DNA from: Candidatus Versatilivorator sp.
GTDB taxonomy: Bacteria > Acidobacteriota > Terriglobia > Versatilivoradales > Versatilivoraceae
DNA length: 64,000 nt
Direction of reading: 5' to 3'
Assembly: GCA_965207735.1 (NCBI GenBank)
Contig: OZ242296.1
Span: 3,776,001 to 3,840,000, forward strand
This document shows, piece after piece, positions 46 through 49,086 of the stretch. The notes below the pieces were generated by a model that ran no database searches, was not told where the DNA came from, and worked only from the letters and a program-made list of their open reading frames with translations. The translations under genes were made by a program, and so were the position numbers. Position 1 is the stretch's first letter. The number at the start of each line of letters is the position of its first letter.

Positions 46-230
46 CTTGTCTGAAACAAACGAAAAAAGACAAAAGAAAAAGAGTGATCCACGAAGGGAC
101 ACGAAGGACGACGAAGGGACACTAAGGCGCTGAGGTTAACCGCGACGGGGTACCAAGATCGCGAGAGGACTATCGATTTCCGATTGTTTCACCCTCGTAT
201 GATCTGCCCGGCAGGGAAGGGGCCGGACTT
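46..230 (-). repeat. Type-A ~185-bp dispersed repeat (IS110-end-like non-autonomous element), copy 1
   Basis: CTTGTCTGAAACAAACG...CACGAAGG...GGCGCTGAGGTTAACCGCGACGGGGTACCAAG...TTGTTTCACCCTCGTATGATC; near-identical copies at 19228, 31003, 31187, 39403, 45722. Confidence 0.85.
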
Positions 231-241
231 TTTAGGTATTG

Positions 242-405
242 ATAGTCCCCGGGCGAACGCCCGGGCGACCCATTGAGCCGCGGAGCGGCGCCAGCAGGTA
301 GCCGTGGGCGTCAGCCCATGGGAAACGTCGCCTATGGGTGTCGAGCCGCGTAGGCGGCGGCAGCAAATGCCGGTGAGCCCAAGTGAAGCACAAGCCGACG
401 CAAGG
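242..405. repeat. REP-like palindrome cluster (GCCGCG-x-GCGGC / TAGCCGTGGGCGTCAGCCCATGG family)
   Basis: Short GC-rich hairpins; recurs at 6680-6910, 39240-39375 (reverse), 58660-58752, 59064-59230. Confidence 0.7.
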
Positions 406-409
406 ATGA

Positions 410-692
410 TTTGAAACAACGCCTTGTGCCGGGTGGCGGAACATCCGTTCAAAGTCAAGCATAGTCAGACGGCTAATTTACATGGATGCACAGGATGGAC
501 AGGATTATTCGGCGAGAGTTTCCACCGTCGTGAGTTCAACCGTCGCCTCCGTTCCAACACGGATTTCCCAAAACCCGCTCCCAGGCTCTTGGATTACTTC
601 CAGCACCCACCCGATCATCAAGCGGGTCTGCTTCTGTGGCACAGCCTCCCGTGCTGTTTATCCTGTATATCCTGTGCATCCATGTTCAATCA
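410..692 (-). repeat. Type-B repeat with inverted CATGGATGCACAGGAT cassette
   Basis: TGAAACAAC...GCCGGGTGGC...GTCAAGCAT then CATGGATGCACAGGAT ... ATCCTGTGCATCCATG; copies at 19410-19640 and 45505-45729. Confidence 0.8.
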
Positions 693-797
693 GTAGAAAA
701 CCGGTTTGCCACGACAGGGTCCTTGTTCCCGGCAGGCCATGAAGATGCGTTGTTTCACGCTCGAATGATCCGTCCCGTCGTCGGGGACGGAGCCTCG

Positions 798-1178
798 CTA
801 CCTGGAGCTTCCAGCCGGCGGCGCGGAGGGACGGCTGAGAACGAACAGGGCCACCCCCAGGCTGATCAGTATCAGCACCACCTGAAGGTAGGGCGAGCGC
901 ACCACGAACCACACGCTGTAGCCGACCAGGCCGAACATCAGCACCACCGAGGCGGCCTTGGCCCCCGGGCGGATCACTTGTCCGTTTTCCCAGTCGCGCA
1001 GAATGGGTCCGAAGCGCCGGTGGGCTCGCAGCCATTGGTGAATCCGAGGCGAGCTCCTGGAGAAAAAGTAGGCGGCCAGCAATACCAGCGGGGTGGTGGG
1101 AACCAGGGGAAGGAATATCCCTGCGAATCCAATCGACAGAGACACAAGTCCCAAGGCCAAGTAGAGTTTTCTGATCAT
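798..1178 (-). CDS. ybaN: YbaN/DUF454 family inner membrane protein
   Basis: Family motif GIFLPLVPTTPLVLLAAYFFSRSSPRIHQWL..HRRFGP.LRDW; 126 aa, hydrophobic. Confidence 0.85.
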   Translation of the reverse strand: MIRKLYLALGLVSLSIGFAGIFLPLVPTTPLVLLAAYFFSRSSPRIHQWLRAHRRFGPILRDWENGQVIRPGAKAASVVLMFGLVGYSVWFVVRSPYLQVVLILISLGVALFVLSRPSAPPAGSSR

Positions 1179-1282
1179 GGATCCAAAAGCAAGAACCCGT
1201 CGTCAGTGGGGAGTTGAACGCGAGCCACCGGTGTCCTGCCTTGTTTCATTGGAGACGAGTGGACAGAAATCTGGCTAATATG

Positions 1283-1298
1283 ATACAGATATCTGTAT
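1283..1298. promoter_or_regulatory. Perfect 16-bp palindrome over the antitoxin start codon; probable TA operator
   Basis: ATACAGATATCTGTAT; TATGAT -10-like hexamer at 1279-1284. Confidence 0.55.
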
Positions 1299-1539
1299 GA
1301 AAACGACTCTCAACTTTGATGACCACCTGATCCGCACCGCCAAGATCCGTGCCGCTCAGCAAGGGGAGACCCTGACGCGACTGATCGAACGCGCCCTGCG
1401 AGATTACCTTCAAGCCGGTCCACATGACTCGGCGCGCCAGTTTCGGGCCAAGTTGCTGACCAAGCGAGGCCGTGCGGTCGCCGGGGTCAATCTGGACGAC
1501 CGGGACGCCCTCTACGAGCGGATGGAGGCGCCCGATTGA
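1297..1539 (+). CDS. vapB: VapB-type ribbon-helix-helix antitoxin
   Basis: MKTTLNFDDHLIRTAKIRAAQQGETLTRLIERALR and C-terminal GVNLDDRDALYERME; overlaps the PIN gene by 4 nt. Confidence 0.85.
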   Translation: MKTTLNFDDHLIRTAKIRAAQQGETLTRLIERALRDYLQAGPHDSARQFRAKLLTKRGRAVAGVNLDDRDALYERMEAPD

Positions 1540-1967
1540 TTGCGGTCGACACGAACATTCTTGTTCATGCGCACCGCGAGGAGTCGCCCAAGCATCTCGC
1601 CGCTCACGCACGCGTCGTCGCCCTCGCCGAGTCCCCTGCCCGCTGGGGTATCCCGGTATTTTGCGTCGGCGAATTCGTTCGCGTCATCACCCACCCCAGG
1701 CTGTTCAATCCTCCTTACTCCGCCAACGAAGCGTGCCAGGCACTGACCAGGCTGCTTGCCTCACCGAGTGTGACCGTGGTCCGCCCCGGTTCCGCCTATC
1801 CGGAGCTCCTGTTGGAAGCGCTCCGCGAGGCAAACGCCATTGGGAACGTAGCGTTCGATGCTCAGATTGTGGCACTGTGCCGGGAGAACGGCATTTCCCG
1901 CCTCTTGACAGAGGATCGCGACTTCGACCGCTTCCGGGGCCTCGTCATCGAACGCCTCGAGGTGTGA
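1536..1967 (+). CDS. vapC: VapC PIN-domain ribonuclease toxin
   Basis: PIN acidic motifs VDTNIL, GEF, FDAQIVA, TEDRDF. Confidence 0.9.
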   Translation: MIAVDTNILVHAHREESPKHLAAHARVVALAESPARWGIPVFCVGEFVRVITHPRLFNPPYSANEACQALTRLLASPSVTVVRPGSAYPELLLEALREANAIGNVAFDAQIVALCRENGISRLLTEDRDFDRFRGLVIERLEV

Positions 1968-1998
1968 TCACGGTCAGAAGCCGATTCCCAATATCCGG

Positions 1999-3459: not shown

Positions 3460-3600
3460 AAGCGAACGGTTCTCTAGCTCGCACTATGAATCCGCCGACC
3501 TGGTGAGAAATGCGGGCTCGGGTGCCCGTCCGAAAGGGGCGGGTCGACTCAACCCCCCAACCTCTCTACCACCCTCAAAAACAAGGCAGGCGTGGTCCTT

Positions 3601-4932
3601 TCAGCGGGACCACCCGGCAAAGACCTCGGCGGCCGCGGCCACGGTCTCTTCGATGTCGGCGGGGGTGTGGGCCGTAGAGAGGAAGGCGGCTTCGAACTGG
3701 CTGGGAGGCAGATAGATTCCCCGATGCAGCATGTCCCAGAAGAACCGCGAGAAGCGCTCCGGATCGGAGCGCTTGGCCGAGGGGAAGTCAGTGACGGGAG
3801 CGCCGGCGCCTTGGCCGGATTGGGCCTGTTCAGCGCCCGGATTTCCCGGCGTAAAGAAGAGCGTGAACATGCTGCCGACGTGATTTACGTGGACGGAGAC
3901 ACCGGCCTGGTTGGCCGCACGGGTCAGGCCGTCCTGGAGTTGTTCGGCCAGGCGCTCGAGCCCGTCGTAGGTCCCGGGCCGTTCGAGGATTTTCAGGGTG
4001 GCGATGCCAGCGGTTACCGCCAGAGGGTTTCCCGAGAGGGTGCCGGCCTGATAGACGGGACCGGTCGGAGCCAGCCGGCTCATGATCTCGTCTCGACCGC
4101 CGTAAGCCCCGACAGGGAGGCCACCGCCGATGACTTTGCCCAGGATGGTCAGATCCGGCTGAACTCCAAAGCGTTCCTGGGCTCCTCCGTAGGCGATGCG
4201 GAATCCGGTCATCACTTCGTCGAAAATCAGCAGCGCGCCGTGCTGCCGGGTGATGGCGCGCACCCCTTCCAGGAAGCCCGGCTGCGGGGGGACACAACCC
4301 ATGTTCCCGACCACCGGTTCCAGGATCACTGCTGCAATTTTGTCGTTGTGGCGGGCAAAGGCTTCCTCGACCGCGGGCAGTTGGTTGAAGGAGCAGGTCA
4401 GGGTCAGCCGGGCCAGCTCCGAGGGTACGCCGGGGCTGTCGGGCAGTCCCAGGGTCGCCACCCCGGACCCCGCCTTTACCAGCAGGCTGTCGCCGTGGCC
4501 GTGGTAGCACCCCTCGAACTTCAGGATCATGGGACGACCCGTAAAGGCGCGGGCCAGCCGCAGGGCGGCCATGCTGGCTTCGGTGCCGGAGCTGGTGAGG
4601 CGCACCTTCTCAACCGAAGGAAAGGCCTGGTGGATCTGCTCGGCCAATTCCACTTCCCGTTCGGTGGAAGCGCCGAAGCTGGTGCCGGTTTCCAGGACGC
4701 CTCGCAGGGCCGCCATCACCTCGGGGTGGCAGTGACCCAGAATGAGCGGACCCCAGGAGCCCACGTAGTCGAGGTAGCCGTTGCGGTCCACGTCGTAGAT
4801 GCGGGCCCCCTTGCCGTGATCCATGAACAGGGGGTTGCCTCCCACGGCCTGGAAGGCTCTGGCCGGTGAGTTGACGCCGCCCGGAATGAATTTCCGGGCT
4901 CTCTCGTAAAGTTGTTGGGACTTTCGGTACAA
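3601..4932 (-). CDS. hemL: Glutamate-1-semialdehyde 2,1-aminomutase
   Basis: [57 protein letters not shown]. Confidence 0.97.
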
Positions 4933-4946
4933 GATCCCTCCCTGGG

Positions 4947-6679: not shown

Positions 6680-6910
6680 GACGCCAGCCCGGAGAATGGG
6701 GGACATTCCTTAGCCGTGGGGGTCAGCCCATGGGAAACGTCCCGTACGGGAGTTGAGCCGCGAATGCGGCGGCAGCAAATGCCTTAAGCAGATGCCAAGC
6801 GCTGACTAACGAAATGGCGTTTCTCAGCTGCACATAGGCAGCGTGAGCCGGCTTCCTTGAGAGCCGCGAAGCGGCGCCAGCACATAGCCGTGGGCGTCAG
6901 CCCATGGGAA
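6680..6910. repeat. REP-like palindrome cluster
   Basis: Two TAGCCGTGGG-x-GTCAGCCCATGGGAAAC units plus GAGCCGCGAAGCGGC hairpins. Confidence 0.7.
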
Positions 6911-6956
6911 ACCGGAGCGGCGGTCAGCCAACTCGCGTCTACCGTGAAATAGAGTA

Positions 6957-8663
6957 ATGAAACACAAACCGAATCTCACCATCCTGATCCCGTTGCTGCT
7001 GTTTCTGGCGGGGGCGTTTCCGGGACATGGAGCCGGCGGTCCTGCAGTCAATGGGAAGCCGATCGCGATGACCTTCGTCGATGTGGCCGAGCAGGCCGGT
7101 ATCGATTTTCAGCACTACAGCGGCAGCGCCGAGAAGACCTATATGCTGGAATCGATGAGCGGGGGAGTGGCCTGGATCGACTATGACCGGGACGGCTGGC
7201 AGGATCTCTACCTGGTGAACGGCGGCCACTGGGATGAGCTGCTGCAGGGGAAACGGAGCATCTCCAACGCGCTCTACCGCAACAACGGCGACGGCACCTT
7301 CACCGACGTCACCCGGAAGGCGGGTGTCGGGGGCAAGCGGTGGGGCATGGGTGTGGCAGCGGCCGACTACGACAACGACGGCTGGCCGGACCTCTACGTG
7401 TGCAACTTCGGGCCTAACAATCTCTATCGGAACAACGGCGACGGTACCTTCACCGACGTAGCCGATCGAACCGGAGTCGCGGACGGGCGCTGGGGGGTCA
7501 GCGCGGCCTTCGGGGACTATGACGCCGATGGCCACCTGGACCTCTATGTGGCCAACAACGTCACCTTTGACCCTATGAATCCGCCTCCCATGAATTGCAA
7601 GTATCGGGGCATCACCGTCCAGTGCGGTCCCACGGGCCTGCCCTGCGACGGCGACATCCTCTACCGCAACAACGGCGACGGCACCTTCACCGACGTCACT
7701 CGGAAGGCGGGAGTGGCGGGAGTCAAACCCTCCTTCGGACTCGGGGTGGTGTGGACCGACTACGACAACGACAAGGATCTGGACCTCTACGTGGCCAACG
7801 ATCAGATGGCCAACTTCATGTTCGAGAACCAGGGGGACGGGACCTTCAGCGAGATCGCCATGCTTGCCGGGGCCGGTTACTCCGATGACGGCGTCGCCCA
7901 GGGCAGCATGGGGGTCGATTTCGGCGACTACGACCACGACGGGCTGCTGGACATCTTCATCACCCACTTTTCCGACGACTACAACACGCTCTACCGCAAT
8001 CTGGGCGACGGGAACTTTCGGGATGTCAGCCATTTGGCCGAACTGGCCTTCCCCAGTTGGACCTATCTGGCCTGGGGGACCGGCTTCGCGGATTTCGACA
8101 ACGACGGCTGGGAGGATCTGTTCATCGCCAACGGGCACGTGTTTCCCCAAGTGGACCGCTACGAGATGGGCCAGAGCTTCTATCAGCGCAGCCAGCTCTT
8201 TCGCAACCTGGGCAACGGAAGGTTCCACGAGGTCACGGCCGGACTCGACCAGGTCAAGCTCTGGTCCAGCCGGGGAGCGGCCTTTGCCGACTTTGACAAC
8301 GATGGGGATGTCGACGTGGCCGTCAACAACCTGGACGGGAACCCCTGGCTGCTGAGAAACGATGGCGGCAGCCGGCAACGCTGGCTGAGCCTGCGCCTGG
8401 AAGGCACCCGCAGCAATCGCGGCGCCGTAGGGGCCCGGGTGACGGCCCTCACCCGGACGGGGGTCCAGATCCGGGAGGTGCGGGGAGGGTCCAGCTACCA
8501 ATCGACTCATGACCTGAGAGTGCACTTCGGCCTGGGAAAGGCCAACAAGGTCAAGTCGTTGGAGGTGCGCTGGCCGAACGGAACCGCGCAGAGGTTTACC
8601 GACGTCTCCGGCAACCGGAGATACCGGCTCAAGGAAGGAGGCCGTCTTGAGCGGGACAAGTAG
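6957..8663 (+). CDS. CRTAC1-family secreted protein (FG-GAP-like DxDxDG repeats + ASPIC/UnbV), subtype I
   Basis: Signal peptide; repeated DYDNDGxxDLYV...LYRNNGDGTFTDV; C-terminal NRGAVGARV...GGSSYQS...VHFGLG...VRWPNG. Confidence 0.92.
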   Translation: MKHKPNLTILIPLLLFLAGAFPGHGAGGPAVNGKPIAMTFVDVAEQAGIDFQHYSGSAEKTYMLESMSGGVAWIDYDRDGWQDLYLVNGGHWDELLQGKRSISNALYRNNGDGTFTDVTRKAGVGGKRWGMGVAAADYDNDGWPDLYVCNFGPNNLYRNNGDGTFTDVADRTGVADGRWGVSAAFGDYDADGHLDLYVANNVTFDPMNPPPMNCKYRGITVQCGPTGLPCDGDILYRNNGDGTFTDVTRKAGVAGVKPSFGLGVVWTDYDNDKDLDLYVANDQMANFMFENQGDGTFSEIAMLAGAGYSDDGVAQGSMGVDFGDYDHDGLLDIFITHFSDDYNTLYRNLGDGNFRDVSHLAELAFPSWTYLAWGTGFADFDNDGWEDLFIANGHVFPQVDRYEMGQSFYQRSQLFRNLGNGRFHEVTAGLDQVKLWSSRGAAFADFDNDGDVDVAVNNLDGNPWLLRNDGGSRQRWLSLRLEGTRSNRGAVGARVTALTRTGVQIREVRGGSSYQSTHDLRVHFGLGKANKVKSLEVRWPNGTAQRFTDVSGNRRYRLKEGGRLERDK

Positions 8664-17350: not shown

Positions 17351-17476
17351 GAAGCAGGTTGGCGTTGGTCCGAATAGAGACGGCTTGAGGCTCTTGAGGT
17401 CCCAACAGGGGGGTTGCAAGTGAAGCTTCACCAAGGCCCCGGTCAGTGGTCGGCGGCTGAAAGCCCGGAGCCTGTG

Positions 17477-19315
17477 ATGAAGGACCGGTCGCGAGGGGAG
17501 ACCGGTTCCGGTGTGCCCGCCAAACGTCCGGCTCGTGGCTCATTCGGGTTCGGAATGGCCTGGGCGGTTCTGCTGATGGCGCACCTCCTCCAGGTTTCGG
17601 CCCAACCGCAAGCGATTCCCCAATTCGTCGACATTACCCGCTCCAGCAACATCACCTTCCGGCACATGAACGGTGCCGAGCGGAACAAGCGCTACCTGTT
17701 CGAGCTCAAGGGCGGCGGCGCCGGTTTCTTCGATTTTGATAACGATGGCTGGCTGGACCTCTTCATGGTTCAGGGATCCACCCTGGAGAGATTCCGCAAG
17801 GGAGACAACCCCCACGGCACTCTCTATCGAAACCAGGGAGACGGCACCTTCAGGGACGTGACCCGGAAGTCGGGACTGACCCGCACGGCCTGGGGGATGG
17901 GAGTCAGCTTCGGAGACTACGACAACGACGGCTTGGCCGATATCTACCTCAACAACCTGGGCTCCAACTTCCTTTACAGGAACCTGGGCGACGGGACTTT
18001 CCGGGATGTCACGGCGCAGGCCGGCGTGGGAGGTTCCGGGTGGACCTCGTCCTCGGCCTTCGGCGACTACGACGGGGACGGGGACCTGGACCTGTTCGTC
18101 TGCAACTACATCCACTACGACTTCGAGAACCTGCAGCCACCCGATCCCAAGCTGGTCTGCCACTACCGGGGCATTACCATCCCCTGCGGACCGCTGGGGC
18201 TCCAGGCCGGGTCCAACCGGCTCTACCGCAACAACGGCGACGGCACATTTGCCGACGTCACCAAGCCTTCCGGATTGGACGTGAACAACCGTTTTTATTC
18301 TCTGGGCGTGGTTTGGGCCGATCTGGACGGCGACGGGGACCAGGACCTCTACCTGGCCAACGACAGCACCCCCAATCAGCTCTATGTCAACCAGGGCAAC
18401 GGCACCTTCAAGGAAATGGGACTCTTGAGTGGGCTGGCAACCAGTGCCGCCGGAGACTTCCAGGGCGGTATGGGAGTGGATGCCGCCGACTACGACAACG
18501 ACGGGCGGTTGGACGTCTTCGTGACAAACTTCGCTCACGACTACAGCACGCTCTACCGGAACCGGGGCGGCCTCAACTTCGAGGACGTGACCCAGCAGGC
18601 TGGGTTGATTCAGCCGGAATGGCTGTTGGTCGGTTGGGGTACGGGCTTCTATGACCTCGACCACGACGGCTGGAAGGACATCTTCCATTCCAACGGACAC
18701 GTCTATCCCTTCATCCTGGACGCCGAATGGTCGGAGACCTATTTCCAGCCCTCCTCCATCTATATCAACCAGCGGGACGGGACCTTCAGGGACGTGAGAA
18801 AGATGGCGGGAGGCGATCTCCGGAAGGAGCTCTTGGGACGGGGGATGGCTTTCGCGGACTTCGACAACGACGGCGACATGGACTTCCTCATCGGCAACCT
18901 CAACGGCACCCCTCGCCTCTACCGGCACCAGGGGGCGGCCCCCAACCATTGGGTGATGTTCCGGGCCAAAGGGGTCCGGAGCAATCGCGACGGAATCGGG
19001 GCCCGCATCACCGTGGTTACCGGCCGGCTGCGGCAGGTCTGGGAGATCAAACGAACCGTCGGGATCTACTCGGCCAGCGATCCCCGAGCCCATTTCGGGT
19101 TGGGGAAAGCCGGCCGGATCGATCGGGTGGAGGTGAGATGGCCCAGCGGAGCGGTGCAGGAATTCAAGGGCGTGCCGGTCGACCGGCACTACCGGATCGA
19201 CGAAGATAAGGGGTTGGAGAGAGAGTTCTTGTCTGAAACAAACGAAAAAAGACTAGAGAAAAAGAGGAATCCACGAAGACACACGAAGGACGACGAAGGG
19301 CCACTAAGGCGCTGA
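17477..19315 (+). CDS. CRTAC1-family protein, subtype II; last 28 codons read into a repeat
   Basis: DxDxDG repeats, FELKGGG, EIKRTVGIYSASD, AHFGLG, VRWPSG; start uncertain (17414/17477/17555). Confidence 0.9.
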   Translation: MKDRSRGETGSGVPAKRPARGSFGFGMAWAVLLMAHLLQVSAQPQAIPQFVDITRSSNITFRHMNGAERNKRYLFELKGGGAGFFDFDNDGWLDLFMVQGSTLERFRKGDNPHGTLYRNQGDGTFRDVTRKSGLTRTAWGMGVSFGDYDNDGLADIYLNNLGSNFLYRNLGDGTFRDVTAQAGVGGSGWTSSSAFGDYDGDGDLDLFVCNYIHYDFENLQPPDPKLVCHYRGITIPCGPLGLQAGSNRLYRNNGDGTFADVTKPSGLDVNNRFYSLGVVWADLDGDGDQDLYLANDSTPNQLYVNQGNGTFKEMGLLSGLATSAAGDFQGGMGVDAADYDNDGRLDVFVTNFAHDYSTLYRNRGGLNFEDVTQQAGLIQPEWLLVGWGTGFYDLDHDGWKDIFHSNGHVYPFILDAEWSETYFQPSSIYINQRDGTFRDVRKMAGGDLRKELLGRGMAFADFDNDGDMDFLIGNLNGTPRLYRHQGAAPNHWVMFRAKGVRSNRDGIGARITVVTGRLRQVWEIKRTVGIYSASDPRAHFGLGKAGRIDRVEVRWPSGAVQEFKGVPVDRHYRIDEDKGLEREFLSETNEKRLEKKRNPRRHTKDDEGPLRR

Positions 19316-19417
19316 GGTTAACCGCGACGGGGTACCAAGATCGCGAAGGGATGGTCGATTTCTGATTGTTTCACTCTCGGATGATCCGCCCGGCAGGGCG
19401 GGGTCCTCGCTTGCCTG
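19228..19417 (-). repeat. Type-A repeat, copy 2
   Basis: Near-identical to 46-230; bounded by CTTGTCTGAAACAA and CTTGCCTGAAACAA. Confidence 0.85.
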
Positions 19418-19640
19418 AAACAACCCCTTGCGCCGGGTGGCTGGAGACCGGCTCAAGGTCAAGCATGGGTAGTTGGTTTATTCACATGGATGCACAGGAT
19501 GCACAGGGTTTTTTCTGAAGACGGCTGGCTTGCAGTCCTGGACATCCGCAAATCCGCACCGGATCTTCGCCCGAGTTGGCTTCTGGTGCAGGAAGCTCTC
19601 GTCCTGTAAATCCTGTGTATCCTGTGCATCCATGTTAATT
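19410..19640 (-). repeat. Type-B repeat joined head-to-tail with type A
   Basis: CTGAAACAACCCC...CATGGATGCACAGGAT...ATCCTGTGCATCCATG. Confidence 0.8.
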
Positions 19641-19642
19641 AT

Positions 19643-19872
19643 GAGCCTTTTGCAAATATCGCAATCGGGAATGACGTTGAGGCGGCAAGGATGATGTGCT
19701 GCAGGCTCCAGCATTCACCACGATAAGCACAAGAGACAACAGAAACCACAAAAAGCACAAGAGGCACAAAACGGGTTTCTTGATTTCGAGACTTGCCGAT
19801 CGGATGGTTCTTTTTGTGCCTTTTGTGGCCATTCCCGGCAAAGGTCCCGCTGCCGAATTTTGCAAACGCCTC
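19643..19872. mobile_element. 230-bp MITE with ends matching the IS at 45887
   Basis: GAGCCTTTTGCAAATATCG ... CGAATTTTGCAAACGCCTC; no transposase inside. Confidence 0.75.
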
Positions 19873-29799: not shown

Positions 29800-31011
29800 A
29801 TGAAACGCAGAGAGTTCCTGGCTGCCGCGACCGCCACTCCGGCAATGCTGCTTGCCCGCACCGGGGCCGGTGGAACGCCGACCGAGTCAGGGAAGAATTT
29901 CTTGATGGAGCACGGTTTTTGGGACTATACCACCCCGGGCGCCGGAGGAATGGAGTCTTACGGGCAGGACGACTATCTCTCCCTGCTCGACGACATGGCC
30001 GGGGCGGGCATGAACTCCCTGATGATCTACGTGAAGTGGCTGACTACGGGTTACCGGTCCCGACTCCCGTTCCAGGATCAGTCTCCCGAAAACCCGGTCA
30101 TCGCCTCCGACAATTCCCTGCTGCAGCGGACCATCGAGGAGGCGGGTCAACGGGGGATCAAGGTCTGGCTGGGAGGCGCGGTGACCTATTTCGACACCTC
30201 CAGGTTTCGAGCCGATCCCTACCGAACTTACACTCGGTTGAGCGGATTCGATCTGCCGGTGGAGGTGGGGTTGTTCGATACCGACACCCCAGGGCTCAGC
30301 GAGCGCATCGTTCAGATCTACGAGGAACTGGTGGAGCTGTTTCCGGGCGCCGGGGGCCTGGAGGTGGAGCTTGAAGGGGCCGGAGTCGAGAGCGCCCGCC
30401 GAATCCCGCTCTATGATCGATGGGCCCGGGAAAACGGGCGTCCGCCGTTTGTGGAGCTGGGCCACCCGTTCAACCCCCGATCGTTCGATGTTCCCGACTG
30501 GCGGGACTACACCACCGATTCCCGCCTGAGGGTGCTCCGGGCCGTAGAAGATGCCGTGCGGGCCAAGGGGTTTCGGGGGGACCTGGCGACGATCTGCGAA
30601 ACGGGCTCCAGGCCCTACGCCCTGGGTCAGGCCGTCAACCTGAGGGAATTCCACAGGCGCTTTCCCGATTGGACCGCCACCACCTACGAGTACGACAAGT
30701 GGAACCACCGCTATGGGATGATGGATCTCTGCATCGACCATCCCAAGCGGGAAGGGGTCCAGGTGTTTTATCTCCCCCGAGGAGTCATGACCTGGGGAAG
30801 CCGGTGGCCCCTGCCGATCGCCCTGGAGCAAAGTTGGCGGATGGACCTGGAAGACATTCGAAGATTCAAGCCCCGGGGAGTCTGGTGGTTCGGAAGCGGG
30901 GGACGCAGCGAGGGCGCTCACGTGAGTCTTGCCAGGCTGAAGCAGTCCGGCTTCAGCAGCGGCAAGGAGGCGCGGCGGGCCTTGCTGAGGGCGGCTTCGG
31001 AACTTGTCTGA
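29800..31011 (+). CDS. Tat-exported TIM-barrel glycoside-hydrolase-like protein
   Basis: MKRREFLAAA leader; LLDDMAGAGMNSL, IEEAGQRGIKVWLG; stop codon lies inside a type-A repeat end. Confidence 0.6.
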   Translation: MKRREFLAAATATPAMLLARTGAGGTPTESGKNFLMEHGFWDYTTPGAGGMESYGQDDYLSLLDDMAGAGMNSLMIYVKWLTTGYRSRLPFQDQSPENPVIASDNSLLQRTIEEAGQRGIKVWLGGAVTYFDTSRFRADPYRTYTRLSGFDLPVEVGLFDTDTPGLSERIVQIYEELVELFPGAGGLEVELEGAGVESARRIPLYDRWARENGRPPFVELGHPFNPRSFDVPDWRDYTTDSRLRVLRAVEDAVRAKGFRGDLATICETGSRPYALGQAVNLREFHRRFPDWTATTYEYDKWNHRYGMMDLCIDHPKREGVQVFYLPRGVMTWGSRWPLPIALEQSWRMDLEDIRRFKPRGVWWFGSGGRSEGAHVSLARLKQSGFSSGKEARRALLRAASELV

Positions 31012-31382
31012 AACAAACGACAAACGACAAAAGACAAACGACTTATCCACGAAGGGGCACGAAGGACCACGAAGGGGCACTAAGGCGCTGAGGTTAACCG
31101 CGACGGGGTACCAAGTTCGTGAAGGGTTGATCGATTTCTGATTGTTTCACTCTATGTATGATCCGCACACCAGGGCGGGGGCCCGGCTTGTCTGAAACAA
31201 ACGACAAAAGACAAAAGAAAAAGACATTTTCACGAAGGGGCACGAAGGAACGACAAAGGACCACTAAGGCGTTGGGGTTAACCGTGACGGGATACCAAGG
31301 TTAGGAAGGGATGATCAATTTCTGATTGTTTCATTCTCGTATGATCTGCTTATCCTGTCCATCCTGTGCATCCATGTTGAAT
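31003..31382 (-). repeat. Two tandem type-A repeats (31003-31194, 31187-31349) plus half a type-B cassette
   Basis: CTTGTCTGAAACAAACG at 31003 and 31187; ATCCTGTGCATCCATG near 31361. Confidence 0.85.
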
Positions 31383-34673: not shown

Positions 34674-36512
34674 TTGGTCAGGAGAGGCGTTTACAAAAAG
34701 CTCGGCTATAAGACATTGAAGACAAGATGGATCCCATACTGTGCCTGGCGGACCGGCGAAATTGGCGGGCGGCGATCGGCCGTTTCCACCTACTCAGAGC
34801 CGGCCTTCGTTTTTTTCCTCTCCGGAGACGCCATTTCAATCTGGATTTGTTTGTTCTTGATGCTTGCGGCCGGCGGGTTCCTTCGGGCGGAATCAGTGCC
34901 CCGGTTCACCAATGTCACCGGTTCCAGCGGCATCGATTTTCTCCATATCAACGGCCCCGAGAAGACCAAGCCCTACCTGTTCGAGGCCAAGGGCGGCGGG
35001 GCCGGCTTCCTCGATTATGACAACGATGGCTGGCTGGATCTGATCATGGTTCAAGGGTCCACCCTGGAACGATTGCGCAGGGGCGACAACCCGCACGGCG
35101 CGCTCTATCGGAACCAGGGAGACGGGACCTTCCAGGAGGTGACCCGGAAGGCGGGTCTGACCCGGTCCGCCTGGGGGATGGGAGTCACCCTGGGAGACTA
35201 CGACAACGATGGCTTTGTGGACGTCTATTTGAACAACTTGCAGGCCAACATCCTCTACAGGAACCGGGGAGACGGCACCTTCCAGGACGTCACCGATCGG
35301 GCCGGTGTGGGAGACGCCGGGTTGAGCTCCTCTTCGGCCTTCGGCGACTACGACCTGGACGGGGACCTGGACCTCTACGTCTGCAACTATGTTCGCTACA
35401 ATTTCGACAGTCTGCCCCCACCCGGCTCCAAGCCCATCTGCAGCTACCGGGGAGCGCCGGCCTTTTGCGGCCCTCTGGGACTGGACGGGGCGGCCAATCG
35501 GTTCTACCGCAACAACGGAGACGGGACCTTCTCGGAGGTCACAGAGGCTGCGGGGTTGAACGTGAAAAACCGCTATTACTCCCTGGGAGTGGTTTGGGCC
35601 GATCTGGACAACGACGGGGATCCGGACCTCTACGTGGCCAACGACAGCACACCCAATCAGCTCTTTGTCAACCAGGGGGACGGAACCTTCAAGGAATTGG
35701 GTTTCCTGAGCGGCCTGGCAACCGACGCCGACGGGCGTTTCCAGGCAGGCATGGGAGTGGATGCGGCCGATTATGACAACGACGGGCGTGTGGACCTGTT
35801 CGTGACCAACTTCGCCGACGATTACAGCACGCTCTACCGCAATCGAGGGCAGCTCGTGTTCGAGGACGTGAGCCAGCAGGCCCGGCTGAGCCAGCCGGAA
35901 TGGATGCTGGTCGGCTGGGGGGCCGGATTCTACGATTTGAACCATGACGGCTGGAAGGACATCTTCCACTCCAACGGCCACGTCTATGCGCTGGTGCTGA
36001 CGGCCGGCTGGTCCGACCGCTATCACCAGCCTTCTTCCTTCTACCTGAATCGAAAAGACGGAACCTTCAGGGATGTGAGAAAGTTGGCTGGACCGGATCT
36101 GCAGAAAGAGTTGCTGGGCCGGGGCATGGCCTTCGGAGACCTGGACAACGACGGAGACATCGACTTCGTCATCGGCAATCTCAACGGGACTCCCCAGCTC
36201 TTCAGGCATGAAGGCGCCGGTCCCAACCATTGGGTGATGTTCCGCGCCAGGGGGACGCGGAGCAACCGTGACGGCATCGGCGCCCGCGTCACGGTGGTCG
36301 CCGGCGAGCTCCGCCAGGTCCGGGAGATCAAGCGAACCGTCGGCATCTTCTCGGCCAGCGATCCCAGGGCTCATTTCGGTCTGGGGGGCGCCGAGCGAAT
36401 CGAAAAGGTACAGGTGAAGTGGCCCAGCGGGGTGGTGCAGGAATATCGTGACCTGCCCGCCGACACCCACTACAGGATTGACGAGGAGAGCGGTCTGGAG
36501 AAGGAGTTCTGA
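34674..36512 (+). CDS. CRTAC1-family protein, subtype II (true start probably downstream, up to 34860)
   Basis: FEAKGGG, DxDxDG repeats, EIKRTVGIFSASD; close paralog of 17477. Confidence 0.9.
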   Translation: MVRRGVYKKLGYKTLKTRWIPYCAWRTGEIGGRRSAVSTYSEPAFVFFLSGDAISIWICLFLMLAAGGFLRAESVPRFTNVTGSSGIDFLHINGPEKTKPYLFEAKGGGAGFLDYDNDGWLDLIMVQGSTLERLRRGDNPHGALYRNQGDGTFQEVTRKAGLTRSAWGMGVTLGDYDNDGFVDVYLNNLQANILYRNRGDGTFQDVTDRAGVGDAGLSSSSAFGDYDLDGDLDLYVCNYVRYNFDSLPPPGSKPICSYRGAPAFCGPLGLDGAANRFYRNNGDGTFSEVTEAAGLNVKNRYYSLGVVWADLDNDGDPDLYVANDSTPNQLFVNQGDGTFKELGFLSGLATDADGRFQAGMGVDAADYDNDGRVDLFVTNFADDYSTLYRNRGQLVFEDVSQQARLSQPEWMLVGWGAGFYDLNHDGWKDIFHSNGHVYALVLTAGWSDRYHQPSSFYLNRKDGTFRDVRKLAGPDLQKELLGRGMAFGDLDNDGDIDFVIGNLNGTPQLFRHEGAGPNHWVMFRARGTRSNRDGIGARVTVVAGELRQVREIKRTVGIFSASDPRAHFGLGGAERIEKVQVKWPSGVVQEYRDLPADTHYRIDEESGLEKEF

Positions 36513-39191: not shown

Positions 39192-39239
39192 TCTTGAACC
39201 TCCTCCGCCCGATCGATTGGGGCGAAAAGAAACAGAAAC

Positions 39240-39375
39240 GTCATTGCGTCGGCTTGTGCGTCACTTGGGCTCACCGGCATTTGCTGCCGCCGCCTACGCG
39301 GCTCGACACCCATACGCGACGTTTCCCATAAGCTGACGCCCACGGCTAAGTGCTGTCGCGGCTTCGCCGCTCTCA
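39240..39375. repeat. REP-like cluster, reverse copy of ~290-400
   Basis: TGCGTCGGCTTGTGC..CACTTGGGCTCACCGGCATTTGCTGCCGCCGCCTACGCGGCTCGACACCCATA. Confidence 0.8.
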
Positions 39376-39402: not shown

Positions 39403-39592
39403 CAGGTAAGTCCCGCCCCTGCCCAGGTGTGCGGATCATACGAGAGTGAAACAATCAGAAATCGACCATCCCGTCGCGACCTTGGTATCCCGTCGCGGTT
39501 AATCTCAATGCCTTAGTGGCCCTTCGTCGTTCTTCGTGTCCCTTCGTGGATTCCTCTTTTTCTTTTGTCTTTTTTCGTTTGTTTCAGACAGG
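39403..39592 (+). repeat. Type-A repeat (orientation opposite to copy 1)
   Basis: CAG|GTAAGTCCCGCCC...GTGAAACAATCAG...TTGTTTCAG|ACAGG. Confidence 0.85.
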
Positions 39593-39594
39593 GA

Positions 39595-40638: not shown

Positions 40639-40676
40639 TTGGCATTAGTGATCCGCAATGCGCGGGCTCCGGACGT

Positions 40677-43518: not shown

Positions 43519-43777
43519 GGCTTTGCCTCTCCGCCGGCGGAAAAATGAGCCCAACATCGGAAATGCAACGGGAGGACGGCACGACCCATCGATCACTGGC
43601 CCTATCTTAGTGATCCTGATTCTTCAATTCCAGTCTCATCTACGAACAAGAGTCTGTCGCCCCGGGATCAGTCGCGATCCGTGCTAAAATCAACGCAGAG
43701 TAGGCGATGATGCAGTCGCTTTCCGCGTAGTGACCTCTTCCGGAGCCTTCTTCAGGCAGTTTGCTGCAATCCAAGTG

Positions 43778-45475
43778 ATGAACAAGCCGACAGCACTGAG
43801 TCTGATTGCTTGCCTGGCCGCTTTGTCGGGGATATCCGCCAATGATTTGTCCCGCTCGGACAAGTCATTGCCTGCCTCGCCCTCGCTGGTCTTCGAGGAT
43901 GTGGCCGCCGAAGCGGGACTGGATTTTCAGCATTTCAGCGGCAGCCCCGAGAAGCAGTACATTCTGGAGAGCATGAGCGGGGGCGTGGCCTGGATCGACT
44001 TCGACCGGGACGGCTGGATGGACCTCTACCTGGTCAACGGGGGCCGCTGGGAGGATCTGGTTCAAGGCAAGCGCACGGTTTCCAATGCGCTCTATCGCAA
44101 CGACGGCGACGGCACCTTTACCAACGTGACCGAAAAGGCCGGAGTGGGAAATCGGCACTGGGGAATGGGAGTGGCCGCCGGCGACTACGACAATGACGGC
44201 TGGGTGGACCTGTTCGTCTGCAACTACGGTCCCAACACCCTCTACCGGAACAATGGGGACGGCACCTTCAAGGACATGACCGGCACGGCCGGAGTGGGAG
44301 ACGGTCGTTGGGGGGTCAGCGCATCCTGGGGTGACTACGACGCCGACGGCTGGCTGGATCTCTACGTCACCAACACGGTCCAGTTCGACTACAAGAACCC
44401 CGATCCCATGGAGTGCCACTACCGGGGGATAACGGTGCAGTGCGGTCCCCTGGGAATGGTCGGCGATTCCGATATCCTCTACCGCAACAACCGGGACGGG
44501 ACCTTTAGCGACCTGAGCGAGAAGGCCGGCGTCTCGGACGTGCCCCCCTCCTACGGCCTGGGCGCCATCTGGACCGACTACGACAACGACGGAGACCTGG
44601 ACCTCTATGTGGCCAACGACCAAATGGCCAATTTTCTCTTTCGCAACCTGGGAGACGGCACCTTTGAGGAAACCGGGCTCATTGCGGGCGCTGCATTCAG
44701 CGATGACGGGACGGCTCAGGGCAGCATGGGAGTGGATTTCGGCGACTATGACCGCGACGGCCTGCTGGATATCTACATCACCCATTTTTCAGACGACTAC
44801 AATACGCTTTTCCGCAATCTGGGCCAGGGCAGGTTTCGCGACATGACCCGGGGAGCCGGCTTGACCTTCAGCAGTTGGCCCATGGTGGGTTGGGGCACGG
44901 GGTTCGCGGACCTGGACCATGACGGTTGGGAGGACATCTTTGCCGCCAACGGCCACGTGTTTCCCCAGGTGGACGGATACAAGATCGGCACCAGCTTCCA
45001 TCAACGCAGCCAAGTCTTCCGCAACCTGGGCGACGGCAAGTTCCAGGAGGTGTCGGCCGGACTCGACAAGCTCAAGTCCTGGTCCAGCCGGGGGGTGGCC
45101 TTTGCCGACTTCGACAACGACGGCGATATCGACGTCGCCGTCAACAACCTGGACGGAGTCCCCTGGCTCTTGAGGAATCGAAAGGGGAGTCAGGCCGGCA
45201 ATTGGCTCCTGCTTTCTCTGGAGGGGACCCGAACCAATCGCAGCGCCATCGGGACCAGGATTACCCTCGAGACCGGAGAGGGGAAGCAGATCCGGGAGGT
45301 GCGGGGTGGGTCCAGCTACGAATCCACCCACGACTTCCGGGTCCACTTCGGCCTGGGCGGGCTCGAGACCGTCAAGAAATTGATCGTCCGCTGGACCGAT
45401 GGAACTACCCAGGACTTCGAGAACCTGTCGGTCAACCGCGTCTACCGGCTCAAGGAGGGGGGCGAGCTCGAGTAG
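43778..45475 (+). CDS. CRTAC1-family protein, subtype I
   Basis: ESMSGGVAWID, IREVRGGSSY; close paralog of 6957. Confidence 0.92.
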   Translation: MNKPTALSLIACLAALSGISANDLSRSDKSLPASPSLVFEDVAAEAGLDFQHFSGSPEKQYILESMSGGVAWIDFDRDGWMDLYLVNGGRWEDLVQGKRTVSNALYRNDGDGTFTNVTEKAGVGNRHWGMGVAAGDYDNDGWVDLFVCNYGPNTLYRNNGDGTFKDMTGTAGVGDGRWGVSASWGDYDADGWLDLYVTNTVQFDYKNPDPMECHYRGITVQCGPLGMVGDSDILYRNNRDGTFSDLSEKAGVSDVPPSYGLGAIWTDYDNDGDLDLYVANDQMANFLFRNLGDGTFEETGLIAGAAFSDDGTAQGSMGVDFGDYDRDGLLDIYITHFSDDYNTLFRNLGQGRFRDMTRGAGLTFSSWPMVGWGTGFADLDHDGWEDIFAANGHVFPQVDGYKIGTSFHQRSQVFRNLGDGKFQEVSAGLDKLKSWSSRGVAFADFDNDGDIDVAVNNLDGVPWLLRNRKGSQAGNWLLLSLEGTRTNRSAIGTRITLETGEGKQIREVRGGSSYESTHDFRVHFGLGGLETVKKLIVRWTDGTTQDFENLSVNRVYRLKEGGELE

Positions 45476-45504
45476 CCCCGGGGAAGATCAATCGAGAAGG
45501 ACTA

Positions 45505-45886
45505 TAAATTGAACATGGATGCACAGGATGCACAGGATAATCAGGACCAGAGGCTGCTGCACGAAACGCAGACTCCGGCGATGATCGGGTGCGGATTTGA
45601 GGATGTCCAGGATTGCAAGCCAGCCGTCTCCGGAAAAAATCCTGTGCATCCATGTGAATCAAGAATCTACCCGTGCTTGACGTTGAACCGGTTTCCAGCC
45701 ACCCGGCGCAGGGGGTTGTTTCAGGCAAGCCGGGCCCCCGCCCTGGTGTGCGGATCATACATAGAGTGAAACAATCAGAAATCGATCAACCCTTCGCGAA
45801 CGTGGTACCCCGTCGCGGCCAACCTCAGCGCCTTAGTGGCCCTTCGTGGTCCTTCGTGCCCCTTCGTGGAAATGTCTTTTTCTTTT
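45505..45886 (+). repeat. Type-B plus type-A repeat array; type A is split by an IS and resumes at 47374-47402
   Basis: GGGGGTTGTTTCAG|GCAAG junction at 45711-45729; GTCTTTTTCTTTT[IS]TTTTGTCTTTTT. Confidence 0.85.
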
Positions 45887-47373
45887 GAGCCTTTTGCAAA
45901 ATTCGCAGATAGCGGGAATTTTCACGTGGGGAAAGATCAAGGAGGGCAGGTGGAAGGAGGGGCAAGACCACTGTCTGTTGTATCATGAAGGTGTCTGAAC
46001 CACATGATGAACGGAGGTGGAACTTGCCCCTTAGGGAAACCCTATCACGACACTGGTTCCGGTTTCAACGAGAGCTGTTTCCCCTGCTGGAGGAAGTTTT
46101 GGGGCCTCTGGGAGAGCGTTACCAGCGGCTGGTGCAGGTATTGGAGTTGGTGCGGGTGGAGGAGTTGCTGCCTTACAGTCGGGGCTGGCGTGGCCGGCCG
46201 CTGGAGGATCGGGCAGTGCTGGCGCGAGCCTATCTGGCGAAGTCGATGCTGGAGGTGGCGACCACGCGGGGATTGGTGGAGCGGCTGAGGAGTGAGGGGA
46301 GGCTGCGGCGGCTGTGCGGCTGGGAGAGGGCGTGGGAGGTACCGAGCGAGTCGACCTTCTCGCGGGCCTTTGCGGAATTCGCTGAGAGCGACCTGCCGGG
46401 GCGTTTGCACGAGGCATTGCTGGAGGAGACGCTGAAGGGCCACTTGGCGGGGCATGTGTCGAGGGACTCGACGGCGATTGCGGGACGGGAAAAGCCAGCG
46501 GCCAAGGCTGCGCCGGAGGCCAAGCGGAAACGCCGGCGGGGCCGGCCGCCGAAGGGCGAGCGACGGCCCAAGCGGTTGAGCCGGCTGGAGCGGCAGGGGT
46601 CGATGACGCTGGAGGAAATGTTGAAGGAGTTGCCCAAGGCCTGCGACATCGGCGTCAAGCGCAACGCCAAGGGGCATCAGGAGAGCTGGACCGGCTACAA
46701 GCTACACCTCGACGCCATTGACGGCGGGATTCCGGTCAGTTGTCTGCTGACCTCGGCCTCGGTGCATGACTCTCAGGCAGCCATTCCGCTGGCGACGCTG
46801 ACGGCAAGGCGGGTCGAGAGTCTCTACGACTTGATGGACAGCGCCTACGATGCGCCGGAGATCCGGGCCTTCAGTGAGAAGCTGGGGCATGTGCCGATTA
46901 TTGACGTCAACCCCCGCCGAAGAGCTACCTTGAAAGCCGAGCGGAAGCGGGAGGCACTGGCCCGGCGCTGTATCGGCCAAGTGACTCCCGAGGCGCGGCG
47001 CTACCGGGAACGCTCGACGGTGGAGCGGGTCAACGGACGGCTCAAGGAGGAGTTTGGCGGGAGGCAGGTGAGGGTTCGCGGCCCCGACAAGGTGAGGTGC
47101 CACCTGATGTTCGGCATTCTGGCCCTGACGGTGGATCAGTTGATGCGCCTGACGCTCTGAAGACCGGGTTGCCACCCCCAACCGCACAGCAGGTTCGCCC
47201 GCCTCAAGGCCGGGAGAGGGTAAGCTGTGCCTGCGTCCGGCGACCGCTGGCCATCCGGCCATCAGATTCGGGCTTTTTCCTTCAAAAGGGTCTTTGCAGC
47301 TGGGTAGTCACCGCCGGAACATCACTGTTGCCAGCCCAATGTCATGCCCGATTCCGAATTTTGCAAAAGGCTC
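45887..47373 (+). mobile_element. 1487-bp insertion sequence (IS4/IS5-superfamily DDE, IS1182-like)
   Basis: Perfect 19-bp terminal IR GAGCCTTTTGCAAAATTCG; TTTT target duplication. Confidence 0.9.
45985..47160 (+). CDS. DDE transposase
   Basis: PSESTFSRAF, RDSTAI, GYKLHL, HDSQ, MDSAYD, YRERSTVERVNGRLK. Confidence 0.92.
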   Translation: MKVSEPHDERRWNLPLRETLSRHWFRFQRELFPLLEEVLGPLGERYQRLVQVLELVRVEELLPYSRGWRGRPLEDRAVLARAYLAKSMLEVATTRGLVERLRSEGRLRRLCGWERAWEVPSESTFSRAFAEFAESDLPGRLHEALLEETLKGHLAGHVSRDSTAIAGREKPAAKAAPEAKRKRRRGRPPKGERRPKRLSRLERQGSMTLEEMLKELPKACDIGVKRNAKGHQESWTGYKLHLDAIDGGIPVSCLLTSASVHDSQAAIPLATLTARRVESLYDLMDSAYDAPEIRAFSEKLGHVPIIDVNPRRRATLKAERKREALARRCIGQVTPEARRYRERSTVERVNGRLKEEFGGRQVRVRGPDKVRCHLMFGILALTVDQLMRLTL

Positions 47374-47459
47374 TTTTGTCTTTTTAGGTTGTTTCAGACA
47401 AGTCCCGCCCCCGCCCCCCACGACGGGGCGGATCATTCGAGGGTGAAACAACGGATCAT

Positions 47460-47640
47460 TGTGAAAGAATAAGCACCTGGCGAGACTCCGGCAGCTACGC
47501 CCCGTTTCAGCATTGGTGCCCCGTGCCCCAAGGCAAGTCTGGGTCCGAGCAGGTCATCATTCATTAGTGAGGCTTCCCGGGAAGTTCTCCTCAAGGCAAG
47601 AATCCGAACGACCACGCCAACTCGGGCCGGAGCCCTCGCT
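47460..47640 (+). ncRNA. Candidate IS110 bridge RNA
   Basis: Structured non-coding end upstream of the recombinase; one loop carries GTTTCAG (47504) and GTCTG (47537), which match the element's junction. Confidence 0.55.
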
Positions 47641-47658
47641 CTCGAGGAGGCCAATCTC

Positions 47659-49053
47659 ATGCAAAAGAGCAGGAAAGTCAACACGAAGGCGAAGAAGAAG
47701 CGCAGCCGTTCGACGGCCTTGTCGCGGATCCACCCCGAGGTGGCAGGGATCGACCTGGGGAGTCGGGAGCACTGGGTGTGCGCTCCGGAGGTAACCCCAG
47801 GGAAGCCGAACGTGCGCACCTTCGGCACCACCATGCCGCAGTTGCAGCATCTGGCCGACTGGTTGCTGGAACAAGGGGTGGAGTCGGTGGCGATGGAGAG
47901 CACCAACGTGTATTGGATTCCCCTCTACGAACTGCTGGAGTCCTGCGGCATCGAGGTGCTGCTGGTCAACGCCCGGCAGTTGCGCTACGTTCCGGGCCGC
48001 AAGACCGACATGCGGGACTGCCAGTGGATCCAGTTGCTGCACAGCTGCGGCTTGCTGCGGGGATCCTTCCGTCCGCACGAGGCGATCGTCCGGGTTCGGA
48101 CCCTGCACCGGCAACTGAGCACTCTGGGGGCCGAGAGTACCCGCTTTGTGCAGTGGATGCAGAAGGCGCTGGATCAGATGAACGTCCAGATCCATCGTGC
48201 GGTCACCGATCTGACCGGTCAGACGGGGATGGCGATCGTGCGGGCGATTGTCGACGGCGAACGGGACCCGGTCCGTCTGGCGGGTCTGCGGGACCGACGG
48301 TGCAAGAAGTCCAGCCGGGAGTTTGCCGAGCACCTCACGGGCAACTGGCGCGACGAGCATCTGTTCAACCTCAAGTCGGCGCTGAAGCTCTACGACATGA
48401 CTCAACGCGAGATTGCGGCCTATGAGGCCCGCATTCTGGAGGAAATCCAAGCGCTGCAACCGGTGGAGCGCCGCGACCAGCCCGTGCCGAAGCATCCCAA
48501 TGCGATCAAGGAAAAGGCGATTAGCCGCCGAGGCGGGCACCACCTGCGCACCGAACTGTGGCGCTTTGCCGGGGTCGATCTGACGCGCATCGACGGCATC
48601 GGCACCGAAGCGGCCCTGACCCTGCTGACTGAGGCCGGCCTCGACCTGACGGCCTTCCCCTCGGAGAAGCACTTTGTATCCTGGCTGCGCCTGGCTCCAA
48701 AAACGGCCGTCTCCGCAGGCAAGCCGCTCCACTACAAGAAGGCCAACAGCACCGGGTCTACTCGCGCCGCCGCCGTCCTGCGCATGGCAGCCGTCTCTCT
48801 GAAGCACTCCAAGACCGCTCTGGGGGCCGCCTTCCGTCGCAAGGCCCGCCACAAGGGATGGACCGTCGCCGTCTTCTCCATGGCCCGCCGGCTGGCCGTT
48901 CTCGTCTACCGCATGCTGCGCTACGGCCAGGACTACATCGACATCGGGGAAGCGTGCTACGAAGACCGGTTCCGGAGACGCCGCCTCGCGGGCCTCAAAG
49001 ATGCTGCTAAGTCTCTTGGTTTCAACCTAGTTCCACAAATCGCAGCCGCTTGA
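47659..49053 (+). CDS. IS110-family DEDD recombinase/transposase
   Basis: GIDLG, MESTNVYW, KTDMRD, RIDGIG, FPSEKHFVSWLRLAP...SAGK; RBS GAGGAGG. Confidence 0.95.
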   Translation: MQKSRKVNTKAKKKRSRSTALSRIHPEVAGIDLGSREHWVCAPEVTPGKPNVRTFGTTMPQLQHLADWLLEQGVESVAMESTNVYWIPLYELLESCGIEVLLVNARQLRYVPGRKTDMRDCQWIQLLHSCGLLRGSFRPHEAIVRVRTLHRQLSTLGAESTRFVQWMQKALDQMNVQIHRAVTDLTGQTGMAIVRAIVDGERDPVRLAGLRDRRCKKSSREFAEHLTGNWRDEHLFNLKSALKLYDMTQREIAAYEARILEEIQALQPVERRDQPVPKHPNAIKEKAISRRGGHHLRTELWRFAGVDLTRIDGIGTEAALTLLTEAGLDLTAFPSEKHFVSWLRLAPKTAVSAGKPLHYKKANSTGSTRAAAVLRMAAVSLKHSKTALGAAFRRKARHKGWTVAVFSMARRLAVLVYRMLRYGQDYIDIGEACYEDRFRRRRLAGLKDAAKSLGFNLVPQIAAA

Positions 49054-49086
49054 ACTGCGGGGTTGTTTCAGGCAAGGCAAGCGCGC

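Follow-up and report, generated by a model that had tools for sequence, protein, structure and literature searches.

Gene-less repeat units that share both ends with a resident IS110 element in Candidatus Versatilivorator: probable passengers of a self-targeting bridge recombinase

Gene-less passengers of IS110-family insertion sequences (IS), and tandem units lying beside such elements, are already known. According to the accessible part of PMC12288879, the MITE (miniature transposable element with inverted repeats) MITEPpu9, or ssr9 module, of P. putida KT2440 carries near-copies of both ISPpu9 ends, lies in tandem with the IS and forms circles of its own. Tandem non-coding units whose boundaries keep only the left-donor match have been described at expanded IS110 loci, as far as the available text of 10.64898/2026.08.14.744561 goes. 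Here we analyze a 64,000-nucleotide stretch (the window) of the complete, 5.26-Mb genome of Candidatus Versatilivorator sp., in which an IS110-family element with a predicted bridge RNA lies among dispersed gene-less repeats that have the same two ends. Very probably, these units are non-autonomous passengers of the resident IS110 and are chained because their right ends are targets.

Several described systems resemble the resident element; the comparisons made here and below hold for the accessible sections of the cited accounts. ISPpu9 has an AG core and the same end layout, namely a B box of GTTTG plus 7 nucleotides ending in AG, and a 43-bp A box whose inner palindrome ends in CAAACA. IS621 and ISCro4/IS622 (PMC11208160, PMC13626964; 8wt9, 9t56) share with it the DEDD and serine domains, a two-loop RNA in the left end with the target loop first, left guides that pair with the bottom strand, a dinucleotide core and the lack of a target duplication. 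The IS1111-group seekRNAs (ISEc11, ISPa11, ISKpn4; PMC11187229) are alike in their subterminal inverted repeats and in a bottom-strand match on the 3' side of a loop. In ISPpu10 a stem-loop formed by the target DNA close to the core contributes specificity in addition to that of RNA-DNA pairing (10.64898/2026.03.19.712850); the resident element instead has its stem-loop in its own left end, with a motif matching the RNA behind it.

The repeat units were counted by their ends. The genome has 218 occurrences of the right-end motif, TGTTTCAG-RYAAG, against none in two shuffled genomes and none when read backwards, which bears out a preliminary description of the window that had proposed dispersed repeats sharing both ends with the IS110 element. 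Pairing each left-end cassette with the next right end gave 176 units genome-wide: 10 full IS110 copies, 113 type-A units (140-199 nucleotides, about 185 bp), 15 units of 60-65 nucleotides, and composites from 300 nucleotides upward that hold other repeats or the DDE element. A unit extends from the first base after the AG core through to TTGTTTCAGRCAAG, and all units have a common frame: AG core, 8 nucleotides, a hairpin, a 7-nucleotide motif (M), about 5 nucleotides, GAAACAA, a variable interior, TTGTTTC and AGRCAAG. The 60-bp units contain little beyond these parts. The fuzzy left-end pattern is noisy (376 matches, versus 54 in a shuffled genome), and the counts are therefore based on complete units. 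The units group into 103 loci, 40 of which are chains of two to seven units; 108 left ends sit immediately behind a right-end core, and 63 of the 113 type-A units are directly behind a family right end.

The window contains the following units, one of them interrupted by an unrelated insertion sequence:

46..227, minus strand: type-A passenger, from the genome census of ends
412..792, minus strand: type-B unit, left-end cassette at 792, right end decayed near 412
19228..19409, minus strand: type-A passenger; a copy about 1 Mb distant, located behind an IS110, is 99% identical
19410..~19640, minus strand: type-B unit abutting the type-A unit, no left end within 1.5 kb
31003..31186, minus strand: type-A passenger, from the unit census
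31187..~31350, minus strand: 5'-truncated type-A unit, head-to-tail with the unit at 31003..31186
39411..39592, plus strand: type-A passenger behind a target-like AGGTAAG, with the variant right end AGACAGG
~45505..45729, plus strand: type-B unit, right end intact, no left end within 1.5 kb
45730..47402, plus strand: type-A passenger interrupted by a DDE element; the IS110 sits directly behind the right end of the passenger
45887..47373, plus strand: DDE (IS5/IS1182-like) insertion sequence of 1,487 bp with a TTTT duplication; 43 copies with both ends in the genome

The six type-A and three type-B copies counted in the preliminary description were all located, although two type-B copies have no left end and one has a decayed right end. 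Its head-to-tail joints (19410, 31187, 45729, 47402) also stand, but the cut it placed at CAG|RCAAG does not: the crossover is 5 bp further right, after RCAAG. The DDE element at 45887-47373 is an unrelated, later intruder into a type-A unit. Since it splits the unit that begins at 45730, what borders the IS110 on the left is still the right end of this type-A unit. The 43 complete DDE copies in the genome are nearly all identical, and at least eight lie in or beside the T-rich tail of type-A units, with TTTT-like 4-bp duplications.

Unit boundaries were taken from six near-identical pairs at different loci, whose different flanks include those of two pairs at 100% and two at 99% identity. On the right side identity stops 0-1 nucleotides past RCAAG in five of the six, and on the left side it covers only CAAG in five of the six, with R often different. 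The units thus resemble MITEPpu9 in carrying both ends of the resident IS without a recombinase gene, and in occurring as multiple gene-less copies at unrelated sites bounded by the IS core; shared ends and core boundaries together support the earlier suggestion of non-autonomous IS110 passengers. They are not MITEs of the classical DDE type, for their repeats are subterminal and asymmetric and no duplication extends beyond the shared core. MITEPpu9 differs in having eight copies against more than 150 units here. ISPpu9 moreover targets repetitive extragenic palindromic (REP) sequences, the right-end 7-mer of the MITE differs from that of the IS, and the accessible sections of PMC12288879 contain neither mapped guides nor a family of 60-bp minimal units.

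The resident element and its parts are as follows:

47403..49076, plus strand: IS110-family element of 1,674 bp including the right AG core; left AG core at 47401-47402
47403..47451, plus strand: left-end cassette common to all passengers (8-nucleotide spacer, hairpin 47411-47431, M 47432-47438, GAAACAA 47445-47451)
47484..47635, plus strand: predicted bridge RNA with two internal loops, from a 51-sequence alignment
47531..47537, plus strand: left target guide AGGCAAG (AGACAAG in 4 of 10 copies), which covaries with the 7 nucleotides left of the insertion in homologues
47556..47562, plus strand: G3 (ATCATTC), a third RNA segment that matches M in the same sense; 5' strand of the donor loop
47594..47600, plus strand: left donor guide AGGCAAG (AGACAAG in 2 of 10 copies)
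47659..49053, plus strand: bridge recombinase open reading frame (ORF), 464 amino acids (PF01548 and PF02371; NF033542 above cut-off)
49063..49076, plus strand: right end, with the subterminal repeat TTGTTTC and then the donor 7-mer ending in the AG core
49077..49081, plus strand: extra GCAAG behind the right end

The 10 full copies in the genome are 97-100% identical and have the same two ends. The recombinase combines a DEDD RuvC-like domain with a Tnp domain carrying the catalytic serine, as is expected of the IS110 family, and alignment places its conserved residues at D32, E80, D117, D120 and S352. A sequence search of the PDB with the recombinase returned no match; the relation to IS621 came from a fold search, in which 8wt9 was the best match to the predicted model. 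An AG core stands at both ends of the 10 copies and of the homologues, without target-site duplication, and as in the IS110 group the longer non-coding stretch is upstream of the ORF (256 nucleotides, versus 23 downstream). Compared with IS621 and IS622, the protein is only 17-19% identical in fold alignment, the core is AG and not CT, the left guide is on the 3' strand of each loop, no right guide covaries beside the core, a displaced third match is present and the two left guides are equal. Compared with the IS1111 group, 7-bp subterminal repeats are present, but the left one lies 42 nucleotides inside (32-51 in homologues), the RNA is upstream and not downstream of the gene, and the protein has 464 amino acids. 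The element is an IS110-family member without the IS621 right-guide pattern, and its layout fits neither the IS110 nor the IS1111 group fully.

The guides were identified from homologous loci in genomes and metagenomes, which yielded 64 non-redundant RNAs with parsable guides. In the alignment of 51 RNAs, 97% of the cells are paired and 18 of the 35 pairs show a compensatory change, giving a closed structure; the RNA has no match in Rfam. This pattern predicts a bridge RNA, its target loop and donor loop each having a left guide that covaries with the DNA. In 58 of 61 homologues, 43 of which share one sequence, the 7-mer that forms the donor guide on the 3' strand of loop 2 is also the one at the right end, and this holds for all 10 IS110 copies of this genome, the purine included. 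The target guide, on the 3' strand of loop 1, was compared with the left flank in 48 homologues whose core could be placed without the guide (eight others were dropped for want of a core call and eight for want of a left repeat); it is identical in 35 and has at most one mismatch in 44. None of 20,000 permutations reached the observed match for either guide. An unbiased scan of RNA columns against DNA positions agreed: its top 15 are exactly the positions of both left guides plus M1-M5. Both left guides end in AG, and their place on the 3' side of the loop is the IS1111 order, and not the IS110-group order, given in the available text of PMC11187229. For right guides beside the core, which the IS621 model expects, the covariation scan gave no signal above background at RD+1..12 or RT+1..49, and the 5' strand of the target loop has no match nearby. 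It seems that only one side of the target is read.

In the lineage of the resident element both left guides read AGRCAAG. With one sequence in both guides, each right end is itself a target, and all 10 IS110 copies do sit behind a family right end. The preliminary description had supposed that arrays grow because each junction recreates a usable site; this is supported, with the equality of the guides, unseen at the time, as its cause. Homologues give the same picture. The left junction resembles the element's own right end in eight of nine homologues with matching guides, but in only one of 41 without. Three further self-targeting lineages occur among distant homologues at 43-56% protein identity (L126, L132/L148 and L141/L152). 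Two genomes with such self-targeting elements contain 28 right-end sites (G236, many of them 59, 97 or 144 nucleotides apart) and 119 (G015), against two or three in two genomes with unequal guides. Type-A units that are not behind a right end match the guide at six or more of seven positions in 17 of 50 cases, compared with 54 of 20,000 random sites.

One might suppose instead that the units are IS110 passengers but that their chains grow by donor-loop/donor-loop half-matches or by duplication in place, the equality of the guides being incidental or a later adaptation. Recombination between donors and at half-matches has been demonstrated for IS621/IS622 (10.64898/2026.08.31.748434; 10.1101/2025.05.14.653916), and the units with left-donor-only matches in 10.64898/2026.08.14.744561 also fit such a process. 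Those units, in the available text, are at least 95% identical and are explained by half-match duplication. Here neighbours are about 87% identical and of mixed type, and units are dispersed genome-wide, with a target guide equal to the donor arm. Between adjacent type-A units the median identity is 87%, the same as between random pairs; no neighbours among 19 reach 97%, and the types are mixed within chains. Neighbours as unlike as random pairs indicate that chains were built by separate arrivals and not by local duplication. A single base separates the two guides in 19 elements; of their left junctions, five follow the donor guide but 13 the target guide. With these data, and with the single case among 41 unequal-guide homologues, we regard this alternative as improbable.

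That units move, and are transposed in trans, we infer from the comparison of sequences. In the proposed mechanism the recombinase would bind an RNA made from the left end, and units would exit like other IS110s, either in circular form or through copy-out of the top strand. Recombinase and RNA would then copy units in trans into the AG core of existing right ends. Targeting would need only the 7 nucleotides left of the crossover, for which a right end, consisting of donor arm plus core, would be a complete target. Each insertion would supply a new target and so extend a head-to-tail chain, and the 60-bp units would represent the minimal cis element.

Contigs from three runs of three studies provide one polymorphic site. 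They carry a unit at L192:14313-14319, where this genome has none, and the left junction fits the AG core (AG, then N4-GCCCC). The right junction is without RCAAG, and a surplus GCAAG is present in the allele of this genome. RCAAG also follows 14 of the 110 free right ends, and these cases and the site together suggest that occasional use of the upstream AG in TTTCAG leaves 5-bp footprints; the extra GCAAG at 49077..49081 is possibly such a footprint of imprecise excision.

A number of observations weigh against the interpretation of the units as mobile, self-targeted passengers. The right junction just described deprives us of a clean empty/filled pair, and contig data cannot distinguish circles from chains, since a circle junction is identical to a tandem junction. 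Orthologous gaps in nine relatives were too diverged for base-level alignment and yielded no empty sites, and a search of this genome with joined flanks matched 35 of 103, all to their own right junctions or to family junctions and none to a clean empty paralogue. No matched left end accompanies 42 of the 218 right ends, and one of the six near-identical pairs remains identical into the next unit. Six of the eight self-targeting homologues form one clade, the other two (L031 and L075) standing elsewhere on a quick tree that was used only to count lineages. No sigma-70 promoter match was found at the natural right-end/left-end junction (47330-47700); ISPpu9 also lacks a junction promoter, according to the accessible part of PMC12288879. 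The element of G408 has unequal guides, yet that genome contains 33 right-end sites for six RNA loci. Its passengers do not abut but are separated by the TGGTCAG target repeat, and from this exception we conclude that passengers arise without self-targeting, while abutting chains go with it.

Right-end sites occur in 12 of 13 other genomes of the genus, and the one without them also lacks the RNA; five fragmented assemblies have no RNA match. In G409, however, 290 right-end sites are accompanied by a single RNA-like locus with another ORF behind it, and the 57 sites of G411 by no more than a partial RNA match. In both the helper may have been lost, or another may act. The RNA-like locus of G409 (L201; G409:C1:3636670-3636826, minus strand) consists of a left-end cassette and a bridge-RNA homologue with no recombinase behind it and an unrelated ORF following, and is possibly a guide-carrying passenger with cargo.

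The abundance of units in these two genomes, where no complete helper was found, could also mean that the repeats are an older REP- or MITE-like family moved by another enzyme, which the IS110 merely targets and whose sequence it picked up. REPs and MITE ends are often IS110 targets (PMC12288879, accessible part), the interiors of type-A and type-B units contain modules of other repeat families, and there are composites of 300-900 bp. We consider this origin very improbable. In unrelated phyla the IS110 clade has the left-end cassette and a GTTTC-N5-AG right end as native features (hairpin, motif and GAAAC are present in homologues at 55-70% protein identity), the units end at the IS110 core without target duplication, and in other genomes their right-end 7-mer equals the donor guide of the local element. 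An IS110 that had simply inserted into a pre-existing repeat, the outcome the preliminary description named as fatal to its own proposal, should have had different ends in other copies; all 10 copies have the same ends.

Besides the two left guides, a third segment of the RNA, G3, matches the DNA. Motif M lies behind the DNA hairpin, 20-38 nucleotides inside the left end across homologues and about 30 bases inside in the resident element. G3 and M match in the same sense over five positions exactly in 38 of 56 homologues, and in 47 of 56 when wobble is allowed (none of 20,000 permutations). In 26 disjoint pairs chosen for different G3, which may share branches, the DNA had changed identically at 28 of the 46 differing positions, whereas only six DNA changes fell at the 110 unchanged G3 positions. 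A separate set of 38 elements at 33-56% protein identity, reduced to 24 by 12 without a guide call and two more without a left repeat, had a seven-of-seven match in 13, versus six expected (none of 300 permutations); two of the 13 (L136 and L141) were judged by eye to lie at the wrong place. In 40 of 48 homologues the stem begins exactly 9 nucleotides after the core and its last base immediately precedes M, and the hairpin shows compensatory changes both across homologues and among the passengers of this genome.

We favour, with some reservation, the view that G3 is the right donor guide, displaced to an inverted half-site in the left end. G3 occupies the loop strand where that guide would be expected. 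The half-site (bottom strand: GTTTC, 5 nucleotides, complement of M) would mirror the right end, and the hairpin would turn the DNA back. Three points count against this view: the commonest M in the left-end cassettes of the genome (ATCATAC) differs from the resident G3 by one base; the two guides would both pair with the bottom strand, which no bridge RNA described in the accessible text of PMC11208160 does; and mutation of the left-end palindrome of ISPpu9 left circle formation intact, according to the available part of PMC12288879. The last two suit equally the idea that the match serves regulation, by antisense RNA pairing or a promoter block, while the left end is recognized by protein alone, and ISPpu9, which has the same end layout, does make an antisense RNA. 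Match position 8, moreover, is not kept (A:G in 24 of 56). Regulation is nevertheless a doubtful explanation, though one with some weight: besides the position of G3 in the loop, mismatches favour wobble with the bottom strand (G.T/U.G) by 15 to 5, no covarying complement was found in the sense RNA or the left end, and hairpin and M are kept, with compensatory stem changes, in passengers down to 60 bp that make no RNA.

Taken with the displaced right donor guide, the results lead us to lean slightly towards a more general statement. A wide IS110 clade with an AG core would use a 7-nucleotide left target guide, another for the donor right end and a displaced right donor guide beyond the hairpin; with a one-sided target, a few base changes would turn such an element into a self-targeting array builder whose minimal cargo cassette is 60 bp long, and at least six lineages would have taken this course. 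Of these features, natural self-targeting and the displaced guide are unreported in the open-access literature that we found. Journals behind subscription, figures and supplementary files on bioRxiv (among them Fig. S12 in 10.64898/2026.10.21.760802 and Figs S9-S10 in 10.64898/2026.08.14.744561) may bear on the novelty of both.

Bridge recombinases are being developed as editing tools on the assumption of four guides flanking the core, and one-sided 7-nucleotide targeting with a displaced donor guide would, if true, widen the mechanism. Published guide-calling with 25-nucleotide donor windows (10.64898/2026.10.21.760802, accessible part) would cover the displaced site partly or not at all. Self-targeting also offers a direct cause for the unexplained tandem units with left-donor-only matches that 10.64898/2026.08.14.744561 describes beside IS110. 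It accounts for one large intergenic repeat family in these Acidobacteria, and a natural 60-bp minimal substrate makes testing cheap.

Some related elements deserve mention. A short tandem repeat, TGGTCAG/TGATCAG, has become the target of the sister lineage L017-L025; the motif ATCATAC in the left end of this lineage and the 7-mer AGACAAG in its right end are the commonest in the type-A units of the genome, and units with this combination may descend from an L017-L025-like element. In L053, L070, L081 and L122 the target guide CGGTTAG matches a flank that, read by eye, resembles a tRNA 3' end (GTTCGATCCCGGTTAG then CTCCAC). The left end of L141 and L152, an element 43% identical to the window protein, has a 17-nucleotide run in common with the published ISPpu9 A box. 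In RNA run X15, contig depth was higher over the left end than over the ORF, but such depth cannot rank gene parts and most pieces are 90-95% alike, so that neither expression nor habitat is claimed from it.

Other repeats are interspersed with the units. A separate palindromic REP-like family is present at 275-411, 6687-6912, 39236-39372 and 58662-58752, and type-A units are often directly behind one of its ends (TTCTCAGGTAAG). Type-B interiors (412-690, 19497-19636 and 45512-45651) are bounded by inverted ATGCACAGG repeats and may contain a degraded reading frame of the GxxExxY (PF13366) type, although the scores (E 0.44 pairwise, E 3-8 in tblastn) are not significant. A miniature element at 19643-19697 and 19850-19870 has ends resembling the GAGCCTTTTGCAAA inverted repeat of the DDE element, and an exact 170-bp direct repeat, its copies 335 bp apart, lies inside a repeat-rich gap at 58083-58587. 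The window also carries four paralogous FG-GAP repeat genes (6957-8663, 17414-19315, 34674-36512 and 43730-45475); the three that were scanned all have ASPIC/UnbV domains, and TPR and multihaem cytochrome genes are interspersed among them.

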